64,000 bases of DNA, from NCBI RefSeq assembly GCF_003704095.1, contig NW_020844913.1:1-64000 (forward strand), in the 5' to 3' direction. Below the pieces are notes generated by a model. The model was not told the origin of the DNA and did no database searches. It was given only the letters and a program-made list of their open reading frames with translations. The DNA comes from Pocillopora damicornis (taxonomy: Eukaryota). A program made the translations under genes and the position numbers. The stretch's first letter is position 1. Each line of letters begins with the position of its first letter. Of the stretch, positions 14,999-61,651 are shown one piece after another.

Positions 14999-15967
14999 TT
15001 AGTTACTTTCTGTTCCCTGCATGGCTATGTTGTCAAATGTTAAAGTTCTTTGTCTTTGTTTTCTACAGCACTTTCTGTTCCTCAAAAGTTTTGCGAACGC
15101 TTTCCTGAAATTTTCAAACCGCCAGGCATACACAAAAGGGTTCACTCCTGAATTAGCCGTGATCAAAAGAGCAGGAATATCTCTTGCCCAGTGTATAAGA
15201 GTGCAACTGCACGCTTTGCATAAGTTAACAATGTAAATGCAGATACAGGCAGGAAGATAGCATGCTAAGAAGAGAGTCAGTATAATAATAAAGGTCTTGG
15301 TCACTTTCTGTTCCCATCTTGCCGCCTGTCTCTTTGCCTGGTTTTCCACGTTTGTCTGATCCAAAGAATCCCATTGTTTCACTTGATCTCTGATCACACG
15401 AAATATTCTCAGATACGTTAGAAGGATGACTAAGAGAGTGCCAATTACGACTGTGTGGAGAAAGACAAATGAATATGTAAGGTAGCCTGTAACAAGGTAT
15501 ATGAAAGGGAAACTTAATGAGAATACCCAGATGCCAGCCGCCACAAAACCCGCTCGCTTAGGATTCAATTTTGTTCTGTAGGTTAGCGGAGACGTTATCG
15601 CCAAATATCGATCCAGTGTTAAAGCTGCCAAACTGAGAACAGAAGCTGTACACGAAATGAATAACGGCACGTGAAGGTAGGATGCTGGTGGTCTTTTTCT
15701 CGCAGTTCCTTCCATAACATGATACACTACCGAAGTCGGGTCGACGAAGAATCCCATCAAAAGATCGCTAATGGCAAGGCTGGCCACAAAGTAGTTGAAA
15801 GGCGATTTTAGATCTTTGTTTGGATCGACGAAGATTGCTAACACGACGAGTAAATTTCCAGGGACCGTAAACAGGCACAAGGGAACAGTTACCGCGGCCG
15901 TTGTGAACGCGATGTAGCTTGGAGCAACTGATTGATTTGTGCACGGATATTCACCAAACAGAGACAT
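14999..15967 (-). CDS. Intronless class A GPCR, paralogue 2 (322 aa)
   Basis: Full 7TM ORF with DRY, CYLP and NPFVY; very similar to paralogue 1. Confidence 0.95.
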   Translation of the reverse strand: MSLFGEYPCTNQSVAPSYIAFTTAAVTVPLCLFTVPGNLLVVLAIFVDPNKDLKSPFNYFVASLAISDLLMGFFVDPTSVVYHVMEGTARKRPPASYLHVPLFISCTASVLSLAALTLDRYLAITSPLTYRTKLNPKRAGFVAAGIWVFSLSFPFIYLVTGYLTYSFVFLHTVVIGTLLVILLTYLRIFRVIRDQVKQWDSLDQTNVENQAKRQAARWEQKVTKTFIIILTLFLACYLPACICIYIVNLCKACSCTLIHWARDIPALLITANSGVNPFVYAWRFENFRKAFAKLLRNRKCCRKQRQRTLTFDNIAMQGTESN

Positions 15968-18308
15968 GACTCGTGACTGAGCAGATTTGGTTGCTCAAAT
16001 TTACTGTATACCTCTCTTTCTACCCGAAACTATTCACTTCCTGTTACAGTCTAATTATTAAAAACAGGACGTTTACTTCAGCGCCATCTTGGATCGCATT
16101 GGGCACCAAATCGAGGCTGGACGTGCTTTGGGTTGTGTTGCGTTACAGTGTTTTGATTGAAGATTACAAGAAAGCATTGCCCACAATCTTTGCTATATTA
16201 ACTATTGTTGTAACGAGAAGCGAAATAAAACGTGGCAGAGGTAAAGAAAACTATCAGCGAAGGCGAAGCAGTGGCTGTAATTTTTCCATGTCACTTAATG
16301 TCTTTTATGACTTTATGACTTCATAACAAATTGTTTTTATTTGTGATCAAGAAACAATTCTAAAGAAGAAATTGTTTTTATTTGTGATTAGACATACGTA
16401 AAATGCTTCGCCTAGTGCCAATTTGGCCCACAACTGCCCAGACTGAAAGTAGTATGCCTCTGCTTCGAAATCAAATACCCTAAAACAAGGGTAATCCTAG
16501 ACTGCACTGAGATCAAAGTCCAGAGGCCTAACTCCAAGGTTTTAAACAAAGAAATTTACTGTGCGTACAAGTCGTATACCTTCTTAAAATATTTTGTTCC
16601 ACATTTAAGGAAAGTATATCGGACAAAGAAATACCAAAGCGTAGTGGATTTCTGTCGCTTGTCTAAAAAGGGGTTTCCCAGTCCAGGATATATTAGAAAC
16701 TAAAAAAGCTACATTGGCAATTCCATCTTTCTCGGCAAGAACAAAGTCTTTGCATTTCACATCTCAAGAAGTAACAGAAACACAACTGAGATTGCCGTAT
16801 CCATGATGAGAGGGCAAGAAGGTGAATTAGAGAAAATAATATTTTGAGAAAGTGTTACTTCTTTCGCGGGTTGATTCAGTAAACCAAATTTGGACAATGG
16901 GCTGTCTTCCGCTAACAAACGTTAGAGGGCAAATTTAATCGGCTATTAGTGTTATTCAGTAAATCTTGGTTCAATAATGACATTTGTTGCGCCTCAAAAA
17001 GTTAATCAAGTACGTGGCAACTTATGGTTAATGAACCGAAAAAAAAGATTTGAATTGAATGAGGAAAGTTGTTTCTAATTTGTGTGATTCCAGAAAATGT
17101 CCACTTCTCCTCGAGGAAGATGGGAAGTTGGAATGAGAGTGGCAACCGGCAATTTTCTTCACTTTGAAGAGATGCATAGACCCTAAATCGCTATAGTTAG
17201 GATAACAGTTCACAAGCACGAACTAAATTTATCATCTGTTGTAGTAGTGAGTTCCTTGTGTGGATCATACTAACATTCACATCTCGCATAGGGTACTTAA
17301 CTGACACTCCCTTTTTGAATGGCGAAGTAACCCGACACTCATACATGGTGTGGTGGTGAAATACCCTGGTTTGTAGTACTAACTTAAACATGTTCGACTG
17401 TAAGAAAATTCTTCCCTTTTGGAAAACCCGCTGGTATGTTGAGTAAGTTGTTGCCATGGTTGTTGTAATCAATGTCGTGATTGGTGGATGTAGTTGAGTA
17501 TATTTAGAGTCAGAAGTGAAGTTTTTCAGAAGTGAAGTTTTTCAGAAGTGAATTTATAAACAGAGTCAAACCGCTCAAACGAAACTTCTACCCTTTGTCA
17601 CGCAATATCACCAATCAGACCTAATCTAAAGGAAATATTGGCGGTCAAGTGGTAATTCGTAGAAAATCTTCCTTTACTTAAATAAATCCTCAAAGACCCT
17701 CCATCTCATACAGGGGAAGAAAGTCTTGAAAGGAGTATGACTCATGGAGTCTAAACTATAACTGGCGAAGTGAGACAAATCGCGAGGGTCGCGATAACAT
17801 ACATTGTTGAAAATCTTAATCCCTCTTCTAGAAATTACTGTGTATTGGCGCGAATAATTTTTAAGATATATGTATACAAATTGAATTCGCTCGGCACTTT
17901 TCACTTGAGCTCTTCATGAGTTCGATGTTTTGGGATTTCCCAAACCAAGGATAAGAGAATCTTAATAAAGAAATAGTATCTTAAAAGATTTTTAAAGTTC
18001 GCCGTATTTAACATGTTTACAGTTTGCTCCTTTTAATAACGTGCGGTATTCCCTCTGAAGATGTCAAATTCTAATTCTAAACACTCTCTCCACGTCAGAA
18101 GATTTTAAAAACGCTTTTCGGAGCCTGAGCACGAACAAACGCGTTCACTCCTGAAATGGCGAGGATCAAAGTAAAATGAAAATCTCTGACTGACTGCCGG
18201 TATAAACTTACAACCCGAGATACAGTAAGAACAAAGCCTATACTGCGATAGCAGCCTTGGTTACTTTTTGTTCTCCATTTGTAGCCTTTTACTAGTCACT
18301 GCTTTAAC

Positions 18309-19274
18309 TCAGTTGTCCATTGTCTCCATGGCGACGTTGTCAAATCTTAAGGTTCTTTGGCTTCGTTGTCGACAACACTTTCTGTTCCTCAAAAGCTTCA
18401 TGAACGCTTTCCTGAAATTTTCAAACCGCCAGGCATACAGAAACGGGTTCACTCCTGAATTGGCTAAGATCAGAAGGAAAGGAATATCTCTTGCCCAGTG
18501 AATAAGTGTGCAACTGCAGACTGTGCATAAATTAATAATGTAAATGCAGATACAGGAAGGCAGATAGCATGCTAAGAAGAGGGTCAGCATAATAATAAAG
18601 GTCTTCGTCACTTTCTGTTCCCTTCTTGCCGCCTGTCTCCTCGCCTGATTGTCCACGTTCGTTTGATCCAAAGAATCCCACTGTCTCACTTGATCTTTGA
18701 ACACTCGAAATATCTTCAGATATGTTAGAAGGATGACTAAGAGAGTGCCAATTACGACTGTGTGGAGAAAGACAAATGAATATGTAAGGTAGCCTGTAAC
18801 AAGGTATATGAATGGGAAACTTAGTGAGAATAACCAGATGCCAGCCGCCACAAAACCTGCTCGCTTAGGATTCAATTTTGTTCTGTAGGTTAGCGGAGAA
18901 GTTATCGCCAAATATCGATCCAATGTTAAAGCTGCCAAACTGAGAACAGAAGCTGTACACGAAATGAAGTACGGCATGTGAATGTAGGGTAAAGGTGGCA
19001 GTTTCCTCTCAACTCCTTCCTTTACATGGTACACCACCGCAGTCGGGTCAACGACGAATCCCACCAATAGATCGCTAATGGCAAGGTTGGCCACAAAATG
19101 GTTAAAAGGTGACTTGAGATCTTTGTTTGGATCGATGAAGATTGCTAACACGACGAGTAAATTTCCGGCGATGGTGAATAGACACAGCGGAACACATATC
19201 GTGGCCGTAGTAAACGAGATGTAGATTGGAGCAACTGATTGATTAGTGCACGGATATTCACCAAACAGAGACAT
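18309..19274 (-). CDS. Intronless class A GPCR, paralogue 3 (321 aa)
   Basis: Full 7TM ORF with DRY, CYLP and NPFLY. Its 3' flank (~17490-18270) is a diverged homologue of 9100-9890. Confidence 0.95.
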   Translation of the reverse strand: MSLFGEYPCTNQSVAPIYISFTTATICVPLCLFTIAGNLLVVLAIFIDPNKDLKSPFNHFVANLAISDLLVGFVVDPTAVVYHVKEGVERKLPPLPYIHMPYFISCTASVLSLAALTLDRYLAITSPLTYRTKLNPKRAGFVAAGIWLFSLSFPFIYLVTGYLTYSFVFLHTVVIGTLLVILLTYLKIFRVFKDQVRQWDSLDQTNVDNQARRQAARREQKVTKTFIIMLTLFLACYLPSCICIYIINLCTVCSCTLIHWARDIPFLLILANSGVNPFLYAWRFENFRKAFMKLLRNRKCCRQRSQRTLRFDNVAMETMDN

Positions 19275-19459
19275 GACTCGATTAGTTTTACGGCGCTACC
19301 AACGCTAGGTTAGAATGAGAAGTTAAGATTGAATAGATTTTGCTTACGAATCTGCTGTACACTTCACTTCCAACGCGAAAGAAGTATTGTTTTCACCGTT
19401 TGCCTCAGACTATAAATAGAAAACTGTCAGCTTTGGAAATGAGGCTCTTCCATAACAAT

Positions 19460-19918
19460 AGGTTAAACCCCGATAATTCGAACCCCACTATCTTGAAGCA
19501 AAACTGATTTCCCTTGGATTTGCCTCATATAGTTACTGTAATTATAACCCCAATTACTCGAAACCCTGATAACTTGAAGCAATTTTTACTTCCCTTCAGG
19601 TACTTTTCTTTGTAATTTTTCCCTCGATAACTCAAAGTCCATTTTTGCGGACTAATGAGCCATAACATTTTGCACCGGAAGATTACATTTAATCTCATTT
19701 AGATGTTATGATAAATTGACCTTTGTCGATATCACACGTTTGTATGTCCGTAAACAAACAGTTTTGACAGTTCTTCCCGCAAAGAGAAATCAAGGCGCGA
19801 AATCTGGAATTGATTAAGTGTTTTTTGTCTTTTTGTTCGAGACCCTTAGAACTCGAAACCCCGAGAACTCGAGCTAATTTCAATCCCCCAGGCAATTCGA
19901 GTTTCCGGGGTTCAACTG
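19460..19918. mobile_element. Tc1/pogo(Tigger)-like MITE
   Basis: Right end ttcgagtttccggggttcaactg is reverse-complementary to degenerate left end gttaaaccccgataattcgaa; internal repeated cgataactcgaa-like motifs. Confidence 0.55.
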
Positions 19919-20839
19919 TTCAAATAAAGGTTTGTCACTCTGATGTGATAATTTAATGCCTTCGAGCTTTCAAGGTGTTGAATTTATTTTCGTTTAAATA
20001 TGTTTGGCTTACATCAGAAGAATAACACAAGATATCATCAGGCCATCTACCGAGGGGCGGCAGACGGCTTGTGCTTGTGCTAGCTACTCCTGGGCTGCCA
20101 CACCATTGCGCTCCCTCGAAAAAAATTACAGATTTGTTTGACGCTCTACATCTCAGCTGTATACTTTAGCTCTACACCGTAACTAGAATACCATCTAAGG
20201 GTAATTGTTGGCTCATCAGTGCGAAAGCGAATTCTCTCCTGAAGTATCATCTTGAAATGAATGAGGCGAATTTTTCAGTGGCTAAATAAAGCTGTTGATG
20301 CAACTTGTAATCATACCTTGGATTTCCCTTGCGGTTCATTTTTCTTCCTCATTGTTTAATATCCGCATTTTTTGTAACGTTATCAGTACTTGTAAGATAC
20401 ACCAGAAGTTTTACAAAACAATGCTTGGAACTTACTTGCGCTTATGTGTAGGTCTACAAGCTGGTGGTAAAGATAATTACAGAAACATTAACTTAACAAA
20501 CCAGTTTTATTTCCGCATCAAATGGCACTTACATTCCTGATCTCGCCGAGTGATAAGCATTGCGTGACCTATTGGCTCAGAAAAATTGGGCATAATTCAA
20601 CTTTACTGGTCTAGAGCCTCTTCCTCAGGTATACTCTGGCATGTTTAGTATACTCACCTCTCCTTTGAGTGATTGTTTAACCTCTCAGCGAAGGTGTGAA
20701 ATGGTATTTTTGTGCCTTATACCCCTAAAGCGAATAAGTCGTTGCTGGCACGCAACGGTTGTCTTTTCGCATGACCTCGAAACATCAACGATGCCCTATG
20801 GCTTCAAACTTTGCTACCCTTTCGCACGCCTACAATTTT

Positions 20840-21817
20840 CTACGCGGTAGTGTCACTCGTCGTACTCTCCGGGAGGGTGTTTAATTCTACAGCTCTTCCT
20901 TGACGATGACATGAACAATTTTTACAGGACAGAAGCTTTTGAAACGCTTTTCTGAAATTGTCAAATCGCCAGGCGTAAATAAAGGGGTTCACCCCTGAGT
21001 TGGCAAGTATCAAAAGGAAGTGAAAATCTCTGACCCAGTGAATAAACGTACAACTGCAGGCACTGCAGAGATTCGTGATGTAGATGGAAATACAGGAAGG
21101 TAGATAACATGCTAAGAAGAGGGCCAAAATAATGATAAAAGTCTTTGTCACTTTCTGTTCCCATCTTGCCGCCTGTCTCTTGGCCTGATTGTCCACGTTC
21201 GTGTGATCCATCGAGTCCCACTGTTTCACTTGATTTTTCAATACGCGAAAAATCTTGTAATACGTTGTCAACATGACCAGGAAAGTGAAAATTATGACAG
21301 TGTGAGCGAAGACAAATGCGTAAGTCAGGTAGCCCGTCACAAAGTAAATAAACGGGAAGCTTAGTGAAAAGGCCCATATACCAGCCGCCACAAAGCCTGC
21401 TCGCTTAGGGTTCAGCTTTGTTCGGTAAGTCAACGGAGACGTTATCGCCCAGAGTCGATCCACAGTCAAAGCCGCTAAACTGAGAACAGACGCCGTACAC
21501 GAGATGAAGTATGGCATGTGGATGTAAGCCAATGGGGCTGGATATTTCCTTGAAACTCCTTCGCTCAGATGATATGCAAAGGATAACGGGTCGACGACAA
21601 ATCCCACCACAAGGTCGCTGATGGCTAGGTTCGCCACAAAGTAATTAAACGGCGATTTTAGATCTTTGTTGGGGTCCATGAAAATTGCCAATACCACGAG
21701 AAGGTTGCCAGCGATGGTAAACAAGCACATCGGAACTGATATTGCCGCTGAAGTAAATGAAATGTAACTTGGAGCAATTGTTTGATTGATACATGGATAT
21801 TCACCGAACAGAGACAT
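20840..21817 (-). CDS. Intronless class A GPCR, paralogue 4 (325 aa; DRL instead of DRY)
   Basis: Full 7TM ORF with NPFIY; most divergent member of the cluster. Confidence 0.95.
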   Translation of the reverse strand: MSLFGEYPCINQTIAPSYISFTSAAISVPMCLFTIAGNLLVVLAIFMDPNKDLKSPFNYFVANLAISDLVVGFVVDPLSFAYHLSEGVSRKYPAPLAYIHMPYFISCTASVLSLAALTVDRLWAITSPLTYRTKLNPKRAGFVAAGIWAFSLSFPFIYFVTGYLTYAFVFAHTVIIFTFLVMLTTYYKIFRVLKNQVKQWDSMDHTNVDNQAKRQAARWEQKVTKTFIIILALFLACYLPSCISIYITNLCSACSCTFIHWVRDFHFLLILANSGVNPFIYAWRFDNFRKAFQKLLSCKNCSCHRQGRAVELNTLPESTTSDTTA

Positions 21818-22152
21818 TGCTCGTAAATATAAAGGAAAACAAAATCAACGATGGGAGGAAGTTGTTCCAGTTTTGAAACTACTCGTAGAACGTGATCGTG
21901 ATCCTTGATTCGCAGCGGAAGTACCAGGCGATTATCGCTTCCCCTACCACCACCTACGTCACGTTCGTTTTCTTCCACAATAGCGAGAAAGACTGGAACA
22001 AACTAGATCCAGTACCCATGCATTTTCAATATGGCAGATAACGAGATGAACATATACTTCACTTCTTCGTCATTTTGGAACCAAATGTGAAACTAGGGGC
22101 GGACTTTACGTTATGGAACGACAGTTAATTTATCTGCGACATATGAAGTAGA
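21818..22152. promoter_or_regulatory. Probable bidirectional promoter
   Basis: Divergent start codons (21817 minus, 22153 plus) are 335 bp apart; YY1-like caatatggcag at ~22027 and GC-box ggggcgga at ~22096. Confidence 0.4.
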
Positions 22153-36182: not shown

Positions 36183-39100
36183 ATGAAATTGTGGGTCGGG
36201 ATTGTGTTCTTGGTTGTGTCGACACAACTGGGAATCAATGCTCGGCCCATTCCAAGATCAAAACCACTACTAAATGATGGTAGGTAAACATTCCTTGGGT
36301 TTCCTACTGAATAATATACATGAAAAAATTACTCAGTTCTGATTGGTTAAGATAAGTGTAGTTTTCAGGTAATTCAATATAGAAGAGGGTTAATTCAGTG
36401 CAAAGAAGTTACAAACCAGACATTCTGATTGGTCAATAATCAAATGCGAGCCTTGGATGTCGCAACATTTGGATACGCTGAAAATTTGCGAGCGAACAAT
36501 GGCCGGCGTTTTGAGTAGGTTTTCTTTCGCCACCGTAATAGAGCAGCTGAGAAACAGCTCTAATAACGAAAACACTACCTTTTGGTTTTCGGTTTGGAAA
36601 AAGTGGTGTTTAGATAAAGGAATTGCTAAGGAAATCGAAAATTACGAGCCGACCCAGCCTAACACTTTACTCGAGCCATTCTACGCCAAAATTAAAAACA
36701 AACATGGTTAAACCTCGCAAACGACGATTCCATTTCATCGAAAGTGTTTCGGACACAGACTGAACAATTCCTTGAACTGTTTCGCCGGACTTTGAACTTT
36801 TTTGCGTCTTAGAGATGTGAAAATATTGTATATTATTGTTTTGATTGTACGCGGTTGTTTTGACCGAACGCGCACTGTCACTTGCAGGTTTGAATAAATT
36901 ATTTTTGCACTTGATGCGCGCGCTTTGCTTCTGCATAATAGGCCATCTTCCAGTTGTGTACTTAGTTGCTAAGCCTTTGATTTGGAGTGAGGCTGAAGGT
37001 GACCTTGTTGTGGTAGAGACCAGTATCCAATTAGCATGATAACAAAGTAATTTGCATTTGAAAAGCAGCAAGGTTTGTATCATAACAAGGTCACCCTTAG
37101 CCTCATTCCTGTTCAAAGGCTTGGCATCCAAGCACACAACTGTAAAATGGACTATTATGACAAGCTATCTCGTATTTTTTCATGTATATTATTAATACGA
37201 AATCACATGATTTTCTTTGTGCAATTTGGAATAAATAAGCACTCGTTAATTTTTTCAAAGACCACAAATTGCACTCGCCCAAAGGGCTCGTGCAATTTTG
37301 TTAGTCTTTGAGAAAAAATTACTCGTGCTTATTTATTGCACTCGAAATCATGTGATTACCTATATAATAATAATTAATAGGTCAACCGGGTATATCGTCT
37401 TGTGGGGTCACCAACCAATGACTGGAGCTTATGAACGAAGGCCAATCATTGTAACATTATTAATTATAGAAAGTGATAGCACAAAGTTGGCAGACGTATC
37501 CTGCTTCAGGCGCAGGAAAATGTAATCGACAAGATCATAGCGCGAATTACTGTGCCAGACATAGAACTTGGTAGGGCAAAACCAAAGTCAGTAATAAAAA
37601 ACAGCTCTAATCGCCGAAGGTCATGTTGATAAAGCATTTTTAAATTCTAATTTCCTCATTTTTTATGCGGTTGGGGAGGGTACATCGAACACTAGGGGTG
37701 AATTTGTTCGACATAATCAGTAATAAAAAGAGCTGCACGCACTTCTTTAATGGATTGCGCGACCCAAGTGATGCTAAAATTTTATTGAGTAGTTTATCTG
37801 AAGCAAAGTGACTAATAAAGCAACGACTGCTGAAAAGCGCTTGTGTTAAAACTGCTTTTAAGTAGGTTTTAAGTACTTTGCAGCCAGCTTTCAGCGTTTG
37901 TCCAGGAATGAAACAGTCGAACTGAGGTGTTCAAAAGATAGGCTGTATATCCATGTTAGACAACTGTCAATAGGCAGTAATTGATGTAAATTCCCGACAA
38001 CTTTCAATTTTTCAAAACCTTCCCTGATTCTTTGGCAAGTCTGTAGTGTTGCGACCGTTGCTATGGCTCCAGGGCGTTAGCCCACGAAAGTCCGTGATGT
38101 GTACATACGTTTTTTTAACTCTGTTATTCTAAGTTGTTTAGTTTCTGATACTCTTACGTCGTGCGCGTAGATTTTCATTTTAAGGTAGTTAAAGTAAAGT
38201 ACTCTTAAGCTCACGATAAGCCAGTTCTGGCTCGGCGAAATGGTATCAAAGGTTTCAAAGAGTAACGGTAGGGTTCAGAATGATAATTTACGTATGGCTG
38301 GACACTGACACTAAATTTCCTAAAGAGTAGTTAAGATGAAAAGCTATCAGCCAACAGTCTTCCACAGTCTGATGACGTCAGTTTTAGACTTCCCTAGCAT
38401 TAAAGGTAGGTACCCCGAAAATGATCCACCTCCGAATGAAGATGGTATTAACGACTCTTTGCATGATAAAGGTGGAGCCGATGACGATGAAGAAGCCAAC
38501 TGGACTAACGGTGATGATTACAACGAAAATGCCGAGTGGAGAGACAAAGAAGGAGGTGACTCTATCGATGGTGAAGGTAGGCCCCCACGACCTTGAAGAT
38601 TAACATCGGAATTGAGATGATACTAATGACCATCTTGGTGCTATAGGTGATCCGGATGACGACGAAGACGCAGAGTGGAGAGACGGTGATTATGATCACT
38701 CTATCGATAGTGAGGGTAAGTTCCGTACAACAGACATTGACAATGACGTTGATACAAATGAATCCCTAAGTACTTAAAGCAATCCCCATGAAACTTATCA
38801 CGCAGAATCCACATCGGAGTAAAGATGATACTAATAACCCTCTTTGTGCTTAAGGTGAGCCCAATGACGATGAAGATGCCAAGTGGAGCGACGGTGATGA
38901 CTTAATCAACAGTGAAGGTAAGCCCCATGAAAGTACGGGTTTATATGAGAATGACACTGATGCTAATGATATCCCTGCTTAAAGCACTAACAGCTTACTT
39001 TTTGTTAAAGGTGAGCCGGATGTCGATGAAGATGCTGAGTTAAGTGGCGGTGATCGTGATGAGTCTAGCGATGCTGATGGTGAGCTAGAAAATGAGAATT

Positions 39101-42100
39101 TATATGTCGATAACGTCTATACTAATGACCATCTTGGTATTTAAGGTGAACTCGATAGAACTGAAGACTCAACTGAAAACAATGATGATCCTGATGATTA
39201 CTTCGGTATTGAGGACGAGCACAGTGATTATTCTAATGGTAAGCTTCCTGAAACTCAAAATTTTTTTATCAGAATAAGAATGATACTTATGTTACCTTTA
39301 GTACTAAAGGGGAGCCCCAGATAGTTCCACGAAACTTATAATGGTGAATAACCAAAGAGAGGGAGGACACTTACGTTTCTCTTGATGCTCTAGGTGAACT
39401 AGATGGCGATGAAGATATCGAAAGGAGTGAAAGTGAGGATGAGGACCTCATCCATAGTGAAGGTAAGCCTCAGAAAACTTTTTCGTGGAGATTGACATCG
39501 AAATAAAGATGATACTAACGGCTCTCATTGTGCTAAAGGTGAGCCAGATGGCGATGAAGATGCCGAGTGGAGTGACAGTGAAGAAGATGACTTCATTGAT
39601 AATGAAGGTAAGTCTTAGGAAAGTAACACAAAGATTGACATCGCAATTAGGATGATGCAATAACTCTCTTTATGCTAAAGGTGAGCTGGGCGGCGACGAA
39701 GATGTCAAATGGAGAGATAATGACGATATTGACCTCGTGGATAGCGACGGTAAGACCCACTAAACTTATCATGAAGATTGACATGGGAATTAAGATGATA
39801 CTATGGACTCTCTTTGTACTTAAGGTGAGCAAAATAGCGATGAAGATGCCGATTGGATAGACAGTGAAGATGATGACTTCATCGACAATGAAGGTAAGCT
39901 TAATGAAAGTAACATGGAGTTTGGCATTGGAGTTAAAATGATACAAATGACTATTTTTGTGCTAAAGGTGAGCCGGATGACGATAAAGATGTCGAGTGGA
40001 GAGATAGTCACGATGATGGCCCCGTCGATAGTGATGGTAAGCCCCATAAAACTTATCCTGAGAATTGACATCGGAATAACGATGACATTAACAACTCTCT
40101 TTATGCTACAGGTGAGACTGATGGTGATGAAGATATCGAGTGGAGTGACAGTGATGATAATTCTATTGATAGTGAAGGTAACCCTTATGAAACAAATCAT
40201 AAATTCCACATCAGAACTAGAATTACACTAACGACTCTCTTTTTGCCAAAGGTGAGCCGGATGGCGATGATGATACCGATGGGAGAGTCAGTGACGATAA
40301 TGACCTCATCAATAGTGAAGGTAGGCCTCATAAAAATTACCATAGAGATTCACATCATAATCAAGATGATGTAAACGGCTCTCCCTGTTCTAAAGGTGAG
40401 CCAGATGGCGATAAAGATGTCGAGTGGAGGGACACTAAAGATGATGACCTTATCGATCGTAAAGGTAAGCATTATGAAAGTAACGTGAAGATTAACATCG
40501 GAATTAAGATGATACAAATGACTATCTTTGTGCTAAAGGTGAGCCGGATGGCGATGAAGATGTCGAATGGAGAGACAGTGACGATGATGACCTCGTTGAT
40601 GATGATGGTAAGTTCCCCGAAACTTATCCTAAAGATTAACATCGAATTTAAGATGATACTAACGACTTTATTTGTGCTACAGGTGAGCGAGATAGCGATG
40701 AAGATGCCGATTGGAGAGACGGTGAAGATGATGACTTCATGGATAGTGAAGGTAAGCTTTATGAAAGTAACATGAAGTTTGATATCGGAGTTAAGATAGC
40801 ACAATTGACTATCTTTGTGCTAAAGGTGAGCCGGATGGCGACGAAGATGTCGAATGGAGAGACAGTGACGGTAATGATCTCGTCGCTAGTAACGGTTAGC
40901 CTAATGAAACTTATCATGAAGATTCAAAACGGAATCAAGATGATACTAACGACTCTCTTTGTGCTACAGGTGAGCCACATAGCGATGAAGATGCCAATTG
41001 GATAGATGGTGAAGATGGTGATTTTATCGATAGTGAAGGTAAGCTTTATGAAAGTAACATGGAGTTTGACATCGGAATTGAAATGATACAAACGGCTTTC
41101 TTTATACTAAAGGTGAGCAGGATGACGATGAAGATGTCGAGTGGAGAGACAGTCAAGATGATGGCCCCGACGATAGTGATGGTAAGCCTCATGAAACTTT
41201 TCATAAAAATTGGCTTCGGAATAAGGATGATATTAACAACTCTCTTTGTGCTACAGGTGAGACTGATGGTGATGAAGATATCGAGTGGAGTGACAGTGAT
41301 GATAATTCTATTGATAGTGAAGGTAACCCTTATAAAACAAATCATAAATTCCACATCAGAACTAGGATTACACTAACGACTCTCTTTTTGCCAAAGGTGA
41401 GCCGGATGACGATGCAGATACCGATGGGAGAGACCGTGAAGATAATGACCTCATCGATAGTGAAGGTAAGCCTAATAAAAGTTACCATGAAGATTCACAT
41501 CGTAATCAAGATGATGTAAACGACTCTTCCTGTTATAAAGGTGAGCCAGATGGCGATGAAGATGTTGAGTGGAGAGACAGTGAAGATGATGACCTTATTG
41601 ATAGTGAAGGTAAGTCTTACGAAAGTAACGTGAAGATTGACATCGGAATTAAGATGATGCAAATGACTATCTTTGTGCTAAAGGTGAGCCGGATGGCGAT
41701 GAAGATGTCGAATGGAGAGACAGTGGCGATGATGACCTCATTGATAATGATGGTAAGCTCACCGAAACTTATCATGAAAATTGACATCGGAATTAAGATG
41801 ATACTAACGACCCTCTTTGTGCTACAGCTGAGCAAAATAGCGACGAAGATGCCGAGTGGAGCGACAGTAAAGATGATGACTTCATGGATAGTGAAGGTAA
41901 GCTTTATGAAAGTAACATGGAGTTTGACATCGGAATTAAGATGATACAAATGGCTTTCTTTGTGCCAAAGGCAAGCCGGCTGGCGATGAAGATGTCGAAT
42001 GGAGAGACAGTGACTATGATGACCTAGTCGATAGTGATGGTAAGTCCCATGAAACTTTTCATGAGAATTGACATCGGAATTAGAATGATATTAACAACTC

Positions 42101-45100
42101 TTTTTGTGCTATAGGTGAGGCACATGGCGGTGAGGATCTCGAGTGGAGTGACAATGATGACATTTCTATTGATAGTAAAGGTAACCCCAATGAAAGTAAT
42201 CACGAAGTTCACATCAGAATTACGATAATACTTACAGCTCTCTTTGTGCTAAAGGTGAGCCGGATGGTGAGAAAGACACCGATTGGAGAGACAGTGAGGA
42301 TGATGACCTCATCGATAATGAAGGTAAGCCTCAGAAAACTTTTTCATGGAGATTGACATTGAAATTAAGATGAACTGAAGGCTGTCATTGTACTAAAGGT
42401 GAGCTAAATGACGATGAAGATGTCGAGTGGAGTGGCAATAAAGATAAAGACTTCATTGAAGGTAAGCCTTATAAAAGGAACATGAATATTGACATCGGAA
42501 TTAAAATGATACAAATGACTATCTATGTGCTTAAGGTGGGCAGGATGTCGATGAAGATGTCGAATGGAAAGAGAGTGACGATGATGGCCAAGTTGATAAC
42601 GATGGTAAACTCTCCAAAACTTATCATGAAGATTGACATCGGAACTAAGATGATATTAACAACTCTCTTTGTGCTACAGGTGAGCGAGATAGCGATGAAG
42701 AGGCCGAGTGGAGGGACAGTGAAGATGATGACTTCATGGATAGTGAAGGTAAGCTCTATGAAAGTAACATAGAGTTTGACATCGGAATTAAGATGATACA
42801 AATGGCTTTTGTTGTGCTAAAGGTGAGCCGGATGAATATAAAGATACCGAGTGGAGAGACAGTGAGGATGATGACCTCATCGATAATGAAGGTAAGCCTC
42901 AGAAAACTTTTTTATGGAGATTGACGTTGAAATTAAGATGATACTGAAGGCTCTCATCATGCTAAAGGTGATGGCGATGAAGATGTCGAGTGGAGTGGCA
43001 GTGAAGATGATGACTTCGTTGATACTGAAGGTAAGCCTTATGAAAGTAACATGAAGATTGACATCGAAATTAAAATGATGCAAATGGCTCTCTTTGTGCC
43101 AAAGGTGGACAGGATGTCGATGAAGATGTCGAGTGGAGAGACAGTGACCATGATGACCTCGTTGATAATGATGGTAGGCTCCCTGAAACTTATAAAGACT
43201 GACATCGGAATTAAAATGATACTAACGACTCTCTTAAACGACTCTCCCTGTTATAAAGGTGAGCCAGATGGCGATGAAGATGTCGAGTGGAGAGATAGTG
43301 AAGATGATGACTTCATCGATAGTGAAGGTAAGTCTTACGAAAGTAACGTGAAGATTGACATCGGAATTAAAATGATACAAATGACTATCTTTCTGCTAAA
43401 GGTGAGCAGGATGGTGACGAAGATGTCGAATGGAGAGACAGTGACGATGATGACCTCGTTGATAATGATGGTAAGCTTCCTGAGACTTAGCATAAAGATT
43501 GACATCGGAATTAAGATGATATTAACGACTCTGTTTGTGCTAAAGGTGAGCCAGATAGCGATGAAGATGCCGATTGGAGAGACAGTGATGATGATGACTT
43601 AATCGATAGTGAAGGTAAGATTTATGAAAGTTACTAAAGTTTAACATCGGAGCTAAGACCATACAAATGACTATCTTTGTGCTACAGGTAAGCAGGATAA
43701 TGATGAAGATGTCGAGTGGAGAGACAGTCACGATGATGGCCTTCTCCACAGTGATGGTAAGCCCTATGAAACTTATCCTGAAAATTGACATCGGAATAAG
43801 GATGATATTAATAACTCTCTTTGTGCTTCAGCTGGGGCAGATGGTGATGATGATATCGAGTGGAGTGACAATAATGATAATTCTGTTGATAGTAAAGGTA
43901 ATCCTTATGAAACAAATCATAAATTCCAAATCAGAACTAGGATTATACTAACGACTCTTTTTTTGCCAAAGTTGAGCCGGATGGTGATGAAGATATTGAT
44001 GGGAGAGACAGTGAAGATAATAACCTCATTGGTAGTAAAGGTAAGCCTTATGAAAGTTACCATGGAGATTCACATCGCAATCAACATGATGTAAACGACT
44101 CTCCCTGTTATAAAGGTGAGCCAGATGGCGATGAAGATGTCGAGTGGAGAGATGGTGAAGATGATGACTTCATCGATAGTGAAGGTAAGCCTTACGAAAG
44201 TAACGTGAAGATTGACATCGGAATTAAGATGATACAAATGACTATCTTTCTGTTAAAGGTATGCCAAGTGGCGATGAAGATGTCGAATGGAGAGACAGTG
44301 ACGATGATGACCTCGTTGATAATGATGGTAAGCTTCCTGAGACTTATCATAAAGATTGACATCGGAATTAAGATGATATTAACGACTCTCTTTGTGCTAC
44401 AGGTGAGCCAGATAGCGATGAAGATGCCGATTGGAGAGACAGTGATGATGATGACTTAATCGATAGTGAAGGTAAGCTTTATGAAAGTAACTTCGAGTTT
44501 GACATCGGAATTGAGATGATGCAAATGGCATTCTTTGTGCTAAAGGTGAGCAGTATGGCGATGAAGATGCCGAATGGAGACACAGTGACGATGATGACCT
44601 CGTCGATAATGATGGTAAGCTCCCCGAAACCTATCACGAAGATTGACACCTGAATTAAGATGATACTAACGACTCTCTTTGTGCTACAGGTGAGCGACAT
44701 AGCGATGAAGATGCCAAGTGGAGGGAAAATGAAGATGATGACTTCAGCGATAGAACAGGTAAGCTTTATGAAAGCATTATGGAGTCTGACATCGGAATTA
44801 AGATGATAAAAGTGATTATCTTTTTTGCTAAAGGTGAACTGGATGGTGATAAAGACACCGAATGGAGTGACAGTGAGGATGATGACCTCATCGATAGTGA
44901 AGGTAAGCTTCATAAAAGCTATTATGGAGATTAACATTGCAATCAAAATTATATTAACAACTCTCCTTGTGCTTAAGGTGAGCTAGAAGGTGATGAAGAT
45001 ATCGAGTGGAGGGACAGTGAGGATGATGACCTCATTGATAGTGAAGGTAAGCCTCAGAAAACTTTGTTATGGTGATTGACGTCAAAATTAAGGTGATACT

Positions 45101-45940
45101 AACGGCTCTGTTTGTGCTAAAGGTGAGCCAAATGGCTATGAGGATGTCGAGTGGAGTGACGGTGGTGATGACTCTATTGATAGTGAGGGTAAGTTCCATG
45201 AAAGTAAGGTTTTCTCTCTCAATAACGCCAAAAGTAATGAGCTCTTGGCATTAAAGGTGAATTTGATGGAACGGAAGACCTTGATCACCATGATGATGAT
45301 AGAATTGACTACTCTGGTATCGAAGAGGAGCTCGTTGAAAATGAAGATTCGAATCAGAAAGAGGATACTCAGGACTCTTTCGATTTTGATGTTAAGCTTT
45401 GTTAAAGAAGATGAGCTCCAAGGTACGGGTGATTCGAATCATAAAGAAGATTTTGCTAATGACTCTTTATATATCTAAGGTGGTTCTGATGATAGAGATT
45501 GGGACCAGAATGAAGATGACTACTCTTTCGGCACTGAGGACGACCCTTATGAAAGTGAACATCCCAAACAGAATGAAAGAAATGCTGATGACTCCTCTTC
45601 TGAAGGTGAATCAAATGAGATTTTAGATTCAAATCATCACGTAGATGATATTGACAATTAATTCAAAACGATTGTAGATATCGAAGGTGCTCTCGATGCT
45701 AGAGACGACTTTCCAGAAACCGAAGCTTCAGATCCAGATACCGAAGATATTCGAAACGTCCCTAAATTTGTGGAGCATCACGCGCAATTTGAGGATACAG
45801 AGTGGAGTGATGATGATGACAAGGAGGGTTCTGGAGGCTTTGGAGTTCATAATAATAATGAAGGCATAGAAACTGCATGGTGGAATGACAACAATGAAAA
45901 CACTTTCGATGAGTTTGAAAATAATTTGGAGGAAATCTGA
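36183..45940 (+). CDS. Secreted hyper-acidic (Asp/Glu-rich) tandem-repeat protein encoded by ~50 exons; candidate skeletal organic matrix / Ca2+-binding protein
   Basis: Exon 1 (36183-36279) encodes MKLWVGIVFLVVSTQLGINA-RPIPRSKPLLND (signal peptide) with a phase-1 gtaggt donor. Phase-1 acidic exons then start at about 38388, 38647, 38855, 39011, 39146, 39394, 39539, 39681, 39825, 39968, 40112, 40252, 40396, 40539, 40683 and roughly every 144 bp to 44978 and 45123. They are followed by 45257-?, 45480-45605 and a terminal exon 45678-45940 (...FDEFENNLEEI*), with AATAAA at 46153. Every repeat exon I translated is stop-free with only in-frame indels. Confidence 0.8.
36313..37370 (+). mobile_element. 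Non-autonomous Crypton-like (tyrosine recombinase/DUF3504-type) element in intron 1 of the acidic-protein gene
   Basis: 5' ttctgattgg motifs; remnant ORF MAGVLSRFSF...NENTTFWFSVWKKWCLDKG...IENYEP...LLEPFYAKIKNKHG resembling the N-terminal region of Crypton-A/DUF3504 proteins; 3' hairpin ~37200-37358. Family assignment is from recall. Confidence 0.55.
36938..37155. mobile_element. MITE nested in the Crypton-like element
   Basis: Long imperfect TIRs: ataggccatcttccagttgtgtacttagttgctaagcctttga versus tcaaaggcttggcatccaagcacacaactgtaaaatggactat. Confidence 0.75.
38406..45256 (+). repeat. ~144-bp exon+intron tandem repeat, ~46 copies, with higher-order blocks of 1145 bp and 857 bp
   Basis: Unit is gtgagccggatggcgatgaagatgtcgagtggagagacagtgaagatgatgacctcatcgatagtgaag | gtaagc...gatgatactaacgactctctttgtgctaaag. 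Diagnostic variants recur at offsets of 1145 (40112/41257, 40539/41684) and 857 (43259/44116). Confidence 0.95.
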
Positions 45941-48004
45941 AACTTAAAGTGGAATGAGGACTTTTCTTTTTTTTCATGATAATGATGTTAATTTGATAAC
46001 TGTCAACTTGCTTTCGTGGAATCTATATTTGCGGGAGGGGGGTCTTTGATCAAGATTTTGCAGTGAAGGAAATATGTGGCCAATGAATGAGTGGAAATTT
46101 TGGTTTCTTTTTCTTAAAGTACAACTCCTTCTTCAGTTCTGGTATTCATAACAATAAAACTCTTTGACAGGTTGACAACACAATTTCTCTAAAGTGTGAT
46201 AATTCTCAACCAGTTCATGGATGATGGCCGATCATGCTTTGCGATAAATTTTTTGTCGTTTTCGCTCACTGCGTATTCACTGATCAAGCGCCTGACTTAG
46301 GCTATGGTTCAGTCGGCTTTAGGCTCAGCATCAAACATATTGTATTGCACAAATTTCATGTTATTAACGGTTCTCACTTTATTAGGAGTACCATTCATGA
46401 CCACGCTGAAAGCAAAATGATTATTCTTATCTATTGCATACCCCATGCATTTTTGTCAATTTTTCCGTGTTTTTAAGTTTTTTTTAGTTATTTCTCCCTC
46501 GTTCTCAATCCTTTCTCTTCCGTGCGTCACAAGAGAATAGTTGCTCCCTCAATTCGTGGACTTTTCTACAGATGTTTTGGTTTGAGTTGTGCTAATTGTT
46601 GCCCAGGGAGAGCCAAGTGGTTCTGACAGTTATATACGTACACAAGCTCCTAATATGTCTAATCCAAACGAAGTGCGAAACACCAGATAGACGACGCATT
46701 GGTGTTTTTAATTCGATTACTTTCCAAGAATATTATATCGACTTTTTTTGCATTATGAAAGGTTAGCAACAAAACACAACAACTAAGGAAATGGCAGGTA
46801 ACCATATATATCATGCATAGTGCAAGTAATCCAAAATATAAAGTCAGGGGCGCTCGTTTGTCGTAATCAAACTACACCGTGTTTTAAATCGGATAGATTA
46901 ACAATTTATCGGCTGCTACACTTGTTTTTGCCGTCAAGTCAAAAGGTCAATATTTTATTGAAACATTGCACTCTTCAAAATACTTCGTTAGGAAAATAAT
47001 ACTTTTCTTTTCCGGCATTAATTCAGTTACTACTGCAAAAGACTAATTTATTGCTAGAGACGACTGTCTGACATTTTTACCTTCGGCAATTTTCTGCACC
47101 ATGCGGCGATAATTACGTGATAAAGGGTTACTAAGTTGAGGTAAACACCTTTAAAAAGAACTCTTATTCCATGTTATGTTGTTGAAGCGATATCACTAAG
47201 CCGGTGGAGCTCAGTTTCCTTGATCATGTAAAGGAAAATATAAAATATAATTCGAAGACGAGTGGGTGAAAAGGGAAATAAGAGAGTTTATCTTCCCCCT
47301 CACTACTCCAACGTTAGCCTTCGCTCAATCTTGCGGTTAACCACTCACGATAAACAATTTCTCACGCGTGTCACTAGGTGCACGGACCAATATTTATCAT
47401 TAAGTGCGCTTTAAAATGAAGATTAAGTCACCATTTCAATATCAAAAATAGAAAGTAATCTTTTCTGGTGTCTTGCTCTGCTCTTAACAGAACCTTGTGA
47501 AAAGTAATAAGCATTTGCTTATGGACATCGCCGTCACTGTCATACGAAACCACACCCACTCGTTTCTAATCTTTTCCTTCGTCAAAGCGCCTAATTAGGC
47601 TACAGTTTTCAAAACAGTGAATGGAGTCCAATTTACGTCACGTCAGGGCATATGTGGCAAGGGAAAATGCTTAAAAAACTCTTAATGGGGAGTGCATTAA
47701 TAGTCCATTTTTGAGCCCATTGGTGAGCTGATTGAGAACATCAGCACCTACATCGAAGAATTTTAATGTGATATGCCTTCAGGGAATATTATCGCAGAAT
47801 AGAGAAGCATTTCAACAGAGGTCTTATGCAATTCCACACAACCGAACTTTGGTTCAAGATTACGCGAGAGTCGAGCTATACGGTAATTATTCACGCTAGC
47901 TTAAATTTCGTAGCCCTTAAAGGACTAATTGCTGTTGCACAGACCGTAGAGGAACTAGGAGCTTGATTCTCTTTGCAAAAGCTAACTTTGATAAAACAGA
48001 AAAT

Positions 48005-49099
48005 ATGATGAACTCAAACCAGACGCAGCCAAATTTGACAGGAGCTTCAGATATAGGGACAGTAACAATTGTGCAAGTGACATCGTATGCGCTCATAACA
48101 ATCCTCGGGACTGTTGCAAATTTACTGTTGTATGGTGCACTTCTGAGAAAAAAACAACGAAGCCCCAGCGAATATTTCGTGCTGAATCTGGCTTTTACCG
48201 ATCTCATGACGTGTGTAGTTGGGATTCCTTTAGATATGGCCGAAATTTTAATCCAGCGTTGGCCATTTGGAGCCTTCATGTGCAAAGTTGTGTACCCATT
48301 TCAGACGGCTTTAATAGGAGTATCAGTTGCAACATTGACATGCATGGCCATCGAGCGATATCGGGCCATTGTGACACCTTTCAAGCCAATGATAACAAAA
48401 AGAATGGTTAAGGTTGTGATATCCGCTGTTTGGTGCATATCTGGTGCTCTTGTGTCACCTTACATCGTTGTTCTTGAACATAAACGCGAACAGCTACAGT
48501 GCACCGAAGCGTGGCCAAGTGAGAACTATCCAAAAATGTTCACTATGTGTGTTTTTCTACTCTTTTACTCTCTGCCTCTGTGTATTATTGCCCCGGCATA
48601 CATTTGCATTGGATTCAGATTGTACTCTGACGGAAAAAAGATGAAACGATTCAGCATTAAACAAGGTGCTGGAAATCAGTCGTTCCGAAAGCTGGTGAGG
48701 CAGCGAACAAGGACGAATGTCATTATTGTGAAAACGTTTTTGTTCGGTGCTGTAGCGTTCTCCCTGTGCTTGTTACCCTATCACATTATGTGGTTATGGG
48801 CTGACTTCGGAAATGGTGCTCACTGGAGTTATTTTGGAGATGTACTGGTGTTTGCGAACGCTTTGGTGTATTTCAACAGTTTAGTGGACCCATTTATTTT
48901 TGGAGGCACTGTGATACGACACAATTGGAGTAAAACATGTGCGGCCATGCTTCAAAGGTGCTTGAATATTCAAATGGTTAACGAACGGCGAAAGACAAAC
49001 AACAACGTATCCCTAAAACAACAAAACTGCGATAATTCAACAAAAAAGCCGTACTTTAAGCTTCCAAACGCCCCCATTATTTATACTTCGTCCGTATGA
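48005..49099 (+). CDS. Intronless class A GPCR, neuropeptide-receptor-like (QRFP/NPFF/galanin-receptor-like; 364 aa)
   Basis: N-glycosylation sequons (NQT, NLT), NLAFTD, WPFGAFMCK, ERY, ECL2 CTEAWP, CLLPYH and NSLVDPFIF. First ATG is at 48005. Confidence 0.93.
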   Translation: MMNSNQTQPNLTGASDIGTVTIVQVTSYALITILGTVANLLLYGALLRKKQRSPSEYFVLNLAFTDLMTCVVGIPLDMAEILIQRWPFGAFMCKVVYPFQTALIGVSVATLTCMAIERYRAIVTPFKPMITKRMVKVVISAVWCISGALVSPYIVVLEHKREQLQCTEAWPSENYPKMFTMCVFLLFYSLPLCIIAPAYICIGFRLYSDGKKMKRFSIKQGAGNQSFRKLVRQRTRTNVIIVKTFLFGAVAFSLCLLPYHIMWLWADFGNGAHWSYFGDVLVFANALVYFNSLVDPFIFGGTVIRHNWSKTCAAMLQRCLNIQMVNERRKTNNNVSLKQQNCDNSTKKPYFKLPNAPIIYTSSV

Positions 49100-58000: not shown

Positions 58001-60382
58001 TACATTTCTATGAGCTCATGCACATGGAAAGTGAAAATTGAAATTAAATTGAGTAAGAGCATTGTCTACCTTAATAATGTAACAAAACCCCATAAAAAAT
58101 TAAAATCTTGGGTCAAAGCTCTTCAGAGGTTCTTTATACAATGATTACCACTGAGGTTTTTTACATTTAACAGACTTGATAACTGTATTAGTATTTTCTG
58201 TACTACTTATTTAGTAATTATTATCAAATGGCTAACCATAGGTGGTATGTGATAGACCATTAGGTAACATTCAATGCTTAATTAAATTATTATTTAATTA
58301 TATTAAATTTCAGAACCATGAAATTTGATCTCACATCAAAGATAATTCAATTTTAGTTTATTAAATATTCAAGTTCAATTCAATGGAATGTCAATTCCAA
58401 ATTCAATTAAAAAAGAACTTATGATAAGTGGCCCAGAAGAAAATGATTACTGAGAACAAATCATTTTTCAGTTCTCAGGTTTCTAAGTCATTCTAAATGA
58501 AACAACTCCTTGACAAATTTTTCATTTTTCATCTGCTAAAGTGTTAACACGTTCTTTAACTGAGAGCACATCAATCTGGTCAACTAATCCCAAACAGTAC
58601 AAAGTAATATGTACATTACTGATGTGTAATAATTTCTTAAGCAATATCTTTTTAATATTACACTCCAAAAATCCACTTATAAATACCACAATGAGCTCTT
58701 GCTGATTTTTTTTTAATCCTAGAAGAGTTTACCTGACAATACTCTCTAATTATAAATAAAACTTGGAATTATTTTATAACCTATATTGTAAATATAGAGA
58801 TAGTACACTTGCTATATTTGAAATTAAAGATGCTTTTTCTTTCCATTTTACACCCAAATGTTACATTGTACATACCTGACACTGAACTGATTCACTTGTG
58901 TACCTCTTTTGGAATTGTCTGAAACAGTAGAAAATATGTCTTGCTGACTGCTTTATTTATAATATATATGTTTAGATCATATATGCTCTTAGTAGAATTA
59001 AATAATTATTTTTATAAACTTATTTTTTTTCAAAATTTGCTGACTTATATTTCTAGTCTTGATCATAGTAGTGGCAAAATTTAGCCTCGCAAGTGATTAG
59101 TTAGTGCTACGAATCTCCAAGCTGCCAGAGGAAAATAGCCCCTCAAGAACTTCATTTCCGACCATTTTTCTGGCTCTAGTCTGGTGTATTATTAAAACAA
59201 TTATTCACCTTAATGTCGGTGAAAATGAATAATTATTAACTAATATTAGTCAATGAAGACTCTTAACCAAAAAAAATTTCAATTGAGATCACTTTGAGAG
59301 TTTGATTTATTAGAAAAATCGAGTTATGATAAATTTGCTTGCTTTGGGCCAGCAACAAAAGTGTAATTTTTGAACAAATATCTTTGCTGAAACATGCTTT
59401 GCCTTAATTACGTAATCAACGTCTGTTTTTAGAAAGGCTCTCTAGCATGCAATCCATTTATTTGTTTGTAATGACGACAACACCGATGTTGATGGCAGTA
59501 ATTTGAATAATAAAGAAGTTACCACCTACATAATTATATGTTTCATTCATTTTAGGAAGCTGGTTATCACTTATTTGCTATTTGTTGTTATTTCCATTGT
59601 TTCCTAATCCATAAAAGCTGAAAGGAAATTGTTTCATTCTTTTCAAAGTTAAACAAAGAAAATAGAGTTGAATGTTAGACCCGAGCTATTTTTCTGACAA
59701 GAATATCACTCTAACCTTGAACGTCGCTTTCTCGCAAAATATCAGAGACGTAGCGAGATGGGAAAATTCCTGATTCGCCGGTCCGCAAATTAATCCCTAC
59801 GAACCACAGATCTTCATCCTTCTTGTTCACATGAACCGCATCTCCAGTTTCCAAACTCACTTCGTCGTCGTGTCGGGCCACGAACTTATAAAGCGCAATG
59901 TGGGTTTGTTTGATTTTCGATCTACCGAGGTCATCTTCCGAAGATAAAGAAGTATTACTGCTTCGTGATGAGGACGTACTCAGTCGTTTGGATTTTAATG
60001 TCACAATTTCAGCTGAATAATTAATCGACGGAGTCACTGGACTCTGGGATAAATAAAGTGACTTTGGAGTTGCTGGTAAGAGTCTTCTTCCTCTTTCTGT
60101 TTTTGGACTCATTATCTTTTGTTCAGAGACATTTCCGACATCTCGAGACTGCTTGACATGTCCGTTTTCTTCTACGGTCGAAGTTCGGCTTGTCATTTTA
60201 TCTCTGTGATCCCTCAACACATCTTTGTTTTTAATGGTGAAAGTTTCCAATTGTTCCTTCAGGGTTTCTGTATTGTTCTTCGCATTCCCGTACAGTGAAG
60301 TTATGTTTCGACCAATTGTTTCTCTTTCACCTGTTCTTGCAAGATCAGAGTCCACTAATGTAGAGGCTGCCGAATTTAGCAT
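55030..60382 (-). CDS. MAPK8IP1: JNK-interacting protein 1/2-like scaffold (MAPK8IP1/2 family; SH3 + PTB); 5' end unresolved
   Basis: Minus-strand exons: ~60382-59716 (SH3 [23 protein letters not shown]...[15 protein letters not shown]), 58918-58876, 57834-57768 ([21 protein letters not shown]), 57323-57210, 56666-56601, 55974-55901 ([13 protein letters not shown]), 55806-55708 ([18 protein letters not shown]), 55102-55030 (AFKKFY...PIEDFYIE*). All are GT-AG and phase-consistent and match the JIP1 SH3-PTB region. Confidence 0.92.
56270..56545 (-). mobile_element. SINE (same family as 32890..33105) in a JIP intron
   Basis: Reverse complement of the ctctccacccagga...atgggtact...gaaatgctggagggtaccctt...catcc core. 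Confidence 0.65.
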
Positions 60383-61651
60383 CGCTCAGGGAAACTTACC
60401 TTTTGTACTTCCCGCTTGAGAGCTTGTATCGATCAACAAATATTGGTGCAATATCGGCTTGGCGGCAACCAAAAAATGACAACACTTACGTTTGAGAGGC
60501 GGATCGCGCGGTTTCCCTCCGTTTTTACCTCATTCACCGGCTCTTCAGAAGAAAGGGCAGACATTCTAATATCAGTGAAGTCTCAGACTCAGAGCATGTC
60601 AGCTGACTTTTCACGATCGGATAAACTTTGAGGTTAATCTAATTGAATTGTAAATATTAACCAAACGACGGCATGTGGAGGAATTTAATTATGCTAGGTA
60701 ACCTGGCCTAGCTTCATTAGCAACCAAGTTGTACGAATGTAAGCAAATTCGTGATGGCTTAATTTGATATTAATTGGTGGTCAAGGCTCAGTCAAAATGC
60801 AGGCCTTACCGTATTTACAAATCAAAGAGCCCGAGAGTGCTGTCTCTCCAGAGAAGAAAAGTTACAGATTGAGTTTACACGAAGTTTCGTCCAAGACAGC
60901 TCAGTTCAAGGACGGACAATCGAAGAGTGGAAGAAATGTCAACAGACCGGTGAGTGGTCTGCAAACATAGCAAATACGTGTTAAAAAGGATACAAAATTG
61001 GCTAAACTTAATAATTTTGGATTTTACATGGAACAAAAATAATCTTTTGAAAAATTTACACCACATTATTCTCGAACTTTAGACACCATTGTTGATACAA
61101 CAGTTTATCTGCTAAGTTTAACGTCGACTGATCACATTGGAAATTTTACTGAAATTTAGCCAATGTGAGCCTTGATTACTCGCTGTTAAGTCTCGTCGAG
61201 TACGGTTGATAAGAAGGTAAATATTGTGCATTTTTCTGTACAGCTGTTAGGTAATTTTTTTCTTAGAAATTTGCAACGCTGTAGCGCAGTAACTTTGTGA
61301 AATCAAACCAGTTAACAAATTAATATTCAACTTTCTTACCAAAGGTAAACTACTGAGACACAAACTTTTAGAAAAATTATAGGCAAATTTCTTTTGGTTT
61401 AAAGGTGTTGGTAAAATGCATTTTTGTCATATTTGGAGCTCTCTTAATTTACTTGGAAGAGATAAGTATGTAGCGCCCTCAGGGTTATTATTTAAATCTT
61501 GAACATTCTGTCTGTTGGGTGTTCTTGTTATTCAAATTTTTCTTTTACCCTATGAGGTGTATACAAAACAAAGCAATTAGATAGCCTTCAGATATTTCCA
61601 TCTTTCACTTTTATGCATCTTGTTTTATTTCTAAATTTGTGGCTGAGAAAA

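Follow-up and report, generated by a model that had tools for sequence, protein, structure and literature searches.

The question raised by this locus is why the acceptor sites of a long series of small exons should look like donor sites. The locus lies in a stretch of Pocillopora damicornis DNA of 64,000 nucleotides (nt) (assembly GCF_003704095.1, contig NW_020844913.1, positions 1 to 64,000; hereafter the window), in which a 144-nt tandem array of about 40 copies with 72% match is contained in a single gene on the plus strand. As judged from the sequence together with 12 adjacent RNA joints, the array (38647..45188, plus strand, as are all features of this gene) consists of 45 acidic exons of phase 1-1 alternating with introns of about 75 nt. 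An initial annotation, made from the letters alone, had taken the AG|GTGAG junctions as signs of recursive splicing and of a ladder of isoforms. The acceptors probably resemble donors because both descend from one junction of a coding repeat. We give a probability of roughly 60% to the following account: the donor-like acceptors go back to one ancestral junction of a coding repeat of about 70 nt, alternate copies of the repeat became introns, the exon-intron pair was amplified 45-fold, and most modules are spliced in while a few with weak sites are skipped.

The repeat exons measure 69 nt (n=36), 66 nt (n=5), 63 nt (n=3) or 93 nt (n=1), all multiples of three, and the introns between them mostly 73-76 nt. 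All exons are symmetric and every junction is in frame, so that the annotated capacity of any subset to stay in frame was confirmed. GT opens 41 of the 45 exons, GTGAG 32 and GTGAGC 29; the last count agrees with the earlier statement that most begin GTGAGC, as do GTAAGC at 43688 and GTATGC at 44259. Initial GT is lacking in four exons (41828 CT, 41971 GC, 43832 CT and 43972 TT), of which the initial annotation had named three and missed 41971. The acceptors read AAG in 32 cases, CAG in 10 and TAG in 3; the described majority of AAG over CAG and TAG holds. AAG acceptors are used normally, which does not support the supposed weakness. At their 3′ ends the exons carry GAAG (23), GATG (12) or other letters (10), and the mean net charge is about −10 per module. 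Higher-order repeats are also present, blocks of several units having been re-duplicated (40112-41041 versus 41257-41900 and 43235-43620 versus 44092-44477); 74- and 75-nt intron types alternate in these blocks, and the longest exact repeat is 85 nt.

That the introns are spliced is seen from GT..AG joints in RNA contigs. Four of 22 runs were examined (X1, X2, X5 and X19), all of them assembled contigs; depth is therefore not a measure of inclusion level, and rare forms are lost. The joints listed are 15 of 60 and come from two polyA samples (X1 and X2) of one study. Run X5, from a second study, covered 19 of 30 bins and contributed no joint among those listed, while X19 looks genomic.

The resemblance of the two kinds of splice site extends beyond the splice signals. 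Donors most often read GAAG|GTAAGCC and acceptors AAAG|GTGAGCC; the likeness extends to positions +6/+7 and to acceptor −3, and AAG|GTRAGCC (Glu/Lys-Gly-Glu/Lys-Pro) is common to both. Translated in the frame of the exons, the 75-nt introns yield Gly-Lys-Pro...Asp-Asp-Thr-Asn-Asp-Ser, with 34% D+E+N+H as against 6% and 10% in the other two frames. Their codon rhythm follows that of the exons: the second codon position is A in 59% (59% in the exons too), and the third is T in 61% (47% in the exons). In this frame D/E/N codons are more numerous than after dinucleotide shuffling (median p 0.022 for 16 related introns). Pyrimidines near the 3′ end are more frequent in introns (74%) than in exons (55%).

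Exon and intron profiles were compared after trimming of the splice signals, and so were those of a paralogous array on contig C3414 (about 172515-178700; L001:7515 to L002:3700), which has the same leader exon and about 33 units. In all four comparisons (window, paralog and both crosses) the best match had the 3′ ends in register; this end-to-end register was reached by 23, 5, 20 and 8 of 5000 codon permutations (fixed-register p 0.001-0.005). With a single gap of 6 nt, the commonest letters of the two profiles coincide at 39 of 69 positions. An intron profile built from 16 of the 18 75-nt introns also matches exon 45480 (no codon shuffle of 500 reached the score; 33 of 52 letters are identical to the closest intron, in the same frame) and, in frame, the dead exon 45257 (14 of 500 shuffles) and exon 38472 (15 of 500). 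The 66-nt intron 39080..39145 appears, by its end scores, to be chimeric: its 5′ end, with GTGAGC as donor, scores 14.8 as exon-type and −1.8 as intron-type, its 3′ end 4.8 and 20.3, respectively. Its removal is suggested by lengths in the spliced contig X2 record 17.

These data can be accommodated as follows. Tandem duplication would first have acted on an acidic coding repeat, about 70 nt long, whose junctions all read AAG|GT, each copy beginning with GT, ending in AG and spanning a multiple of three. Because of the GT start, the AG end and the frame neutrality, alternate copies could have been excised at no cost. The excised copies would then have gained a branch point and pyrimidines near their 3′ ends and decayed into introns, and the exon-intron pair would have been amplified before the paralogs split. 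GTGAG at the exon starts would be inherited, kept by its coding for Gly-Glu and by acceptor context rather than as a donor. The exon junction complex (EJC) would likely block the regenerated donors, and skipping would arise mainly from decay of a module's own weak splice sites, some modules being lost permanently.

Several observations weigh against this account. When the profiles were allowed any of 31 offsets, 509, 161 and 110 of 3000 permutations (window, paralog and pooled) did as well, a family-wise level of 0.04-0.17, and in the plain pairwise test 55 of 400 did so under codon permutation (0 of 400 under column permutation). The four profile comparisons share ancestry, and the register had been seen by eye before it was tested. 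The intron profile was unmatched by all six single standard repeat exons compared and by exon 39146 and the last exon, and the comparison of the modules of the Stylophora homolog with translated introns was not significant (295 of 1000). Of the 18 introns of 75 nt, 13 contain an in-frame stop, and a length of 74 nt is frequent. An intron-less ancestral state was not found, so the direction of change is inferred. Taking both sides together, sequence comparison makes a coding origin of the introns quite probable.

The RNA contigs bear on the second half of the account, the use of the modules. Neighbouring exons are linked by 12 of the 15 listed joints (10 as placed and 2 misplaced onto near-identical copies), and the remaining three are true skips. 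By its length, a 490-nt contig matches exon 2 and the next five exons. Ten of the 11 loose ends listed for X1 and X2 fit adjacent joints, and the other does not fit exon 40826; 133 loose ends in all lie beyond those listed. An apparent long-range skip (43327>44259) and a backward joint (44040>43259) proved to be misplacements between near-identical copies.

The best-supported skip of a live module is that of exon 42536..42604, whose first letters are GTGGGC and whose own donor (ATG|GTAAAC) is among the two weakest. The joint 42461>42680 occurs in X1 and X2 with 64 and 58 letters on the short side, and no adjacent reading of it is possible. Exon 44546..44614, starting GTGAGC, is most likely skipped as well: in both polyA samples an end of the 43546/44403 type is joined to 44690, with 22 letters on the short side and 5 differences in 24 from the exon's own end. 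The third skipped exon, 45257..45391, is in frame and open but dead, its donor reading TTAAGC; it is bridged by the joint 45188>45480 in X1 and X2 and is missing from the Pocillopora verrucosa RefSeq protein P0018. At its acceptor a branch-point motif was not detected; exons without this motif are included, so that it was ruled out as a predictor of skipping. An assembly error at the dead exon was likewise ruled out, X19 being gapless over 44852-46100 and X2 without difference at the donor. At position 45363 runs X1, X2 and X5 carry an in-frame GAT insertion in this exon, and the acidic frame stays open. A further module, 40826..40894, has the weakest own donor of all (ACG|GTTAGC), and the end of this module is not matched by the 8-nt loose end that precedes exon 40970, a hint of skipping or of an internal donor. 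With three skips observed, limited isoform variation is real.

The strength of the regenerated sites was approximated by pairing with the 5′ end of the genome's own U1, a proxy that rates GTGAG and GTAAG almost alike and therefore likely flatters GTGAG. On this scale the mean is −8.1 kcal/mol for the regenerated sites and −8.8 for the donors that belong to the exons themselves; at 22 of the 45 exons the regenerated site is the more stably paired of the two. The junctions recreated on ligation are accordingly donor-like in strength, in support of the initial annotation. The counts of GT and GTGAG at exon starts do not by themselves argue against chance, the units having arisen from one ancestor by tandem copying (pseudo-replication): the feature is one ancestral junction copied 45 times, not 45 separate events. 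A tree was calculated from 40 of the 45 units, omitting five with atypical exon or intron lengths. On this tree, exon positions +1 to +5 underwent 13 changes, where coding columns of like codon position and base predict 14.9 (P=0.38), i.e. no conservation of the exon-start GTGAG beyond coding need was found. True donors underwent 6 changes over the same five positions, none at GT, and GT is lost at 0 of 45 true donors versus 4 of 45 exon starts (Fisher P=0.058). The exon-start bases encode Gly-Glu; 12 of the 15 modules of the Stylophora homolog begin GE, and 22 of 33 paralog units start GTGAG. Because of these three results (tree, paralog and Stylophora) we conclude that the motif is old and inherited, without sign of selection as a donor.

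The same origin of the introns may be combined with another way of skipping, in which the upstream intron is removed and the regenerated donor then beats a weak own donor. Recursion is not separable from direct skipping here because both yield the same mRNA. At both live skipped exons the regenerated site is stronger than the own donor, which recursion would predict too and which speaks against our account; among exons of this kind 2 of 22 are live skips, compared with 0 of 23 others (P=0.23). Since introns 39080 and 45606 of this gene really use GTGAGC and GTGAAT as donors, recursion stays a live option. In the current view, definition of short introns takes place across the intron itself (PMC8624252), which would create the intermediate needed. 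For both skipped exons the following intron seems to be present unspliced (depths 29 and 173), but an unspliced piece of depth 32 is also found at the included exon 43688. This exon, 43688..43756, carries a perfect regenerated site (AAG|GTAAGC) and was the strongest candidate of the initial annotation; its own donor is used in both polyA samples (joint 43756>43832), against that expectation. In the listed joints the own donor is used by at least five exons whose regenerated site is nominally stronger (40539, 42115, 42255, 42399 and 43688), no selection is seen on the exon-start motif, and the poor acceptor of the dead exon means that direct skipping suffices there. We rate direct skipping at weak sites above recursion, which is possible but not favoured.

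Of human exons, 3.6% regenerate a donor; 93.8% of this group are constitutive, the site being repressed by the EJC (PMC6224609). In Drosophila recursive exons, donor competition, exon content and upstream splicing all count (PMC8605326). Like Drosophila Ubx m1/m2 (PMC8605326) and the human RS-exons (PMC6224609), the modules are short, frame-preserving exons that regenerate a donor on ligation, and in both of those systems inclusion hangs on donor competition and the EJC. The Ubx exons lie in an intron of about 73 kb and have ultraconserved wobble positions, whereas here the introns are of about 75 nt and the motif is not specially conserved. Genes for Mago and Pinin, which count in favour of our account, are present in this genome; their activity at the array is assumed. 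Classical intronic ratchet points lie in very long introns, with human medians of hundreds of kb although shorter cases exist (PMC10156609); the array introns, mostly of 73-76 nt, are not of this kind.

A more dynamic version would make exon and intron interchangeable states of one AAG|GT-bounded repeat. A module losing its own donor would be removed recursively via its own start and could harden into an intron; stages of this process would be seen in intron 39080, the dead exon 45257 and the two skipped modules. Coding repeats would have given rise to dozens of introns and would continue to do so. We consider this unlikely.

Ordinary exon duplication, in which an exon was amplified together with an unrelated intron that sat at a standard AG|GT site within a Gly codon and the likeness reflects only GAT-rich composition or later exchange, appears rather improbable. 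AG|GT is the usual junction context (PMC3443670), the human figure of 3.6% (PMC6224609) shows regenerated donors elsewhere, and the family-wise and protein-level homology tests are weak. It leaves unexplained, however, the exon-frame codon rhythm of the introns, the end-to-end register as best match in four of four comparisons, the match of the intron profile to exon 45480 and the A at acceptor −3 in both paralogs.

Least probable is a regulated combinatorial ladder tuned by recursive splicing, the weaker part of the initial annotation, or, conversely, skip joints that are alleles without whole units: the frame-neutral exons and the Stylophora record titled isoform X9 by its source speak for the ladder and the differing module order in P. 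verrucosa P0018 for alleles, but the listed joints are mostly adjacent, the 490-nt contig fits consecutive exons, the skips fall at the same exons in both samples, and unspliced pieces (42544-42695 in X1, 44575-44686 in X2) show that exons 42536 and 44546 exist in those samples, with a second, deleted allele possible.

Frame-neutral exons allow module skipping in other repeat proteins with symmetric exons and length isoforms, such as tropoelastin, titin PEVK and Xenopus FIM-B.1. To our knowledge the introns of these genes are not copies of their exons. Compared with this type, only a few skips are seen here.

Intron gain by tandem duplication, in turn, is an established model with some documented cases (PMC4974935, PMC3443670, PMC3629103). 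The array agrees with it in that one duplicated AG|GT junction gives both donor and acceptor and the intron seems to resemble neighbouring coding sequence. It differs from the cases described in those papers, which are single introns, in that apparently every second unit is an intron, about 45-fold and in two paralogs, and in that divergence is deep (39 of 69 letters) and an intron-less outgroup was not found. A literature search, with most subscription journals outside its reach, returned no description of this gene or of an array with introns copying its exons.

The ends of the gene were defined as follows. The coding part of exon 1 (36183..36279) has a predicted signal peptide, its hydrophobic N-terminus judged by eye, and is followed by a phase-1 donor; the paralog exon is 81% identical, and the first 33 residues of the Stylophora protein are 79% identical. 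The joint of exon 1 to exon 2 is a prediction and is not among the joints listed. Exon 2 (38472..38576, 105 nt), whose first half resembles the intron profile, is placed by the spliced contig X2 record 17, which starts at 38471. Just 5′ of it lies an orphan unit (38406..38471), both ends of which score intron-type and which is open and acidic in the exon frame. Exon 45480..45605, the first 60 nt of which resemble the intron profile, is spliced into contigs X1 record 7 and X2 record 20. The coding part of the last exon, up to the stop, is 45678..45940, according to the joint 45605>45678 with 125 letters on the short side, and P. verrucosa P0018 agrees. Earlier choices for the starts of exon 2 (38406) and the last exon (45687) were replaced, on RNA, by 38472 and 45678.

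With the dead exon omitted, the open frame predicts a protein of 1,228 residues, 47% of which are Asp or Glu; after the leader, 31% are Asp and 16% Glu. From its composition, the product is likely a secreted, disordered, calcium-binding polyanion, and possibly part of the skeletal matrix. Homologs are Stylophora pistillata XP_022794478.1 ('PFC0760c-like isoform X9') and P. verrucosa XP_066029015.1, the latter nearly identical across the last exons. In P0018 a 42823-like module directly precedes the 44978 module, an order or number unlike that of the window, which may reflect DNA rearrangement or splicing. Pfam held no family matching the acidic protein, and a search of the last exon against longer proteins, as well as two metagenome scans, yielded no homolog; nothing above 0.78 was found for the protein in the ESM Atlas, and searches with the Stylophora protein returned only itself, other isoforms not being among the results. 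The coral acid-rich skeletal proteins (CARPs; Acropora AGARP, B7W112; bioRxiv 10.1101/2024.06.04.597398) were compared by description only; AGARP is described as conserved in Acroporidae, unlike this Pocillopora/Stylophora protein.

In the paralog, GTGAG starts (22 of 33) and AAG acceptors (30 of 33) were counted including broken units with stops or lost acceptors. Several units have in-frame stops, AAT acceptors or lost donors, and the assembly has N gaps there. Many units start GTGAGT, an even better donor. The paralog is either decaying or skipping many dead modules.

A high-copy repeat element lies in intron 1 (36310-37372) and 5′ of the paralog exon 1 (L001:6740-7371), with very deep cover in all four runs. 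Another part of intron 1 (38184-38386) is replaced by other sequence in X1 and X19, an allelic difference. Elsewhere in the window, four tandem single-exon genes for rhodopsin-family G-protein-coupled receptors occupy 9894-21844 on the minus strand (Pfam 7tm_1 checked for one), a further 7tm_1 receptor lies at 47921-49099 (plus strand), and an exon with an SH3 domain at 59711-60385 (minus strand).

Intron gains with an identifiable source sequence are rare (PMC4974935). If our account is true, the tandem-duplication route has operated here at the scale of an array, with intermediates in one locus, namely coding intron-type units, a chimeric intron and a dead exon. The 45 near-identical exons, with regenerated and own donors of varied strength, form a natural series on which competition between donors and protection by the EJC could be tested in a short-intron cnidarian. 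Under the more dynamic version, recursion over introns of 75 nt would trim a coral polyanion. Each skipped module takes about 10 negative charges off a large, apparently undescribed acidic coral protein.

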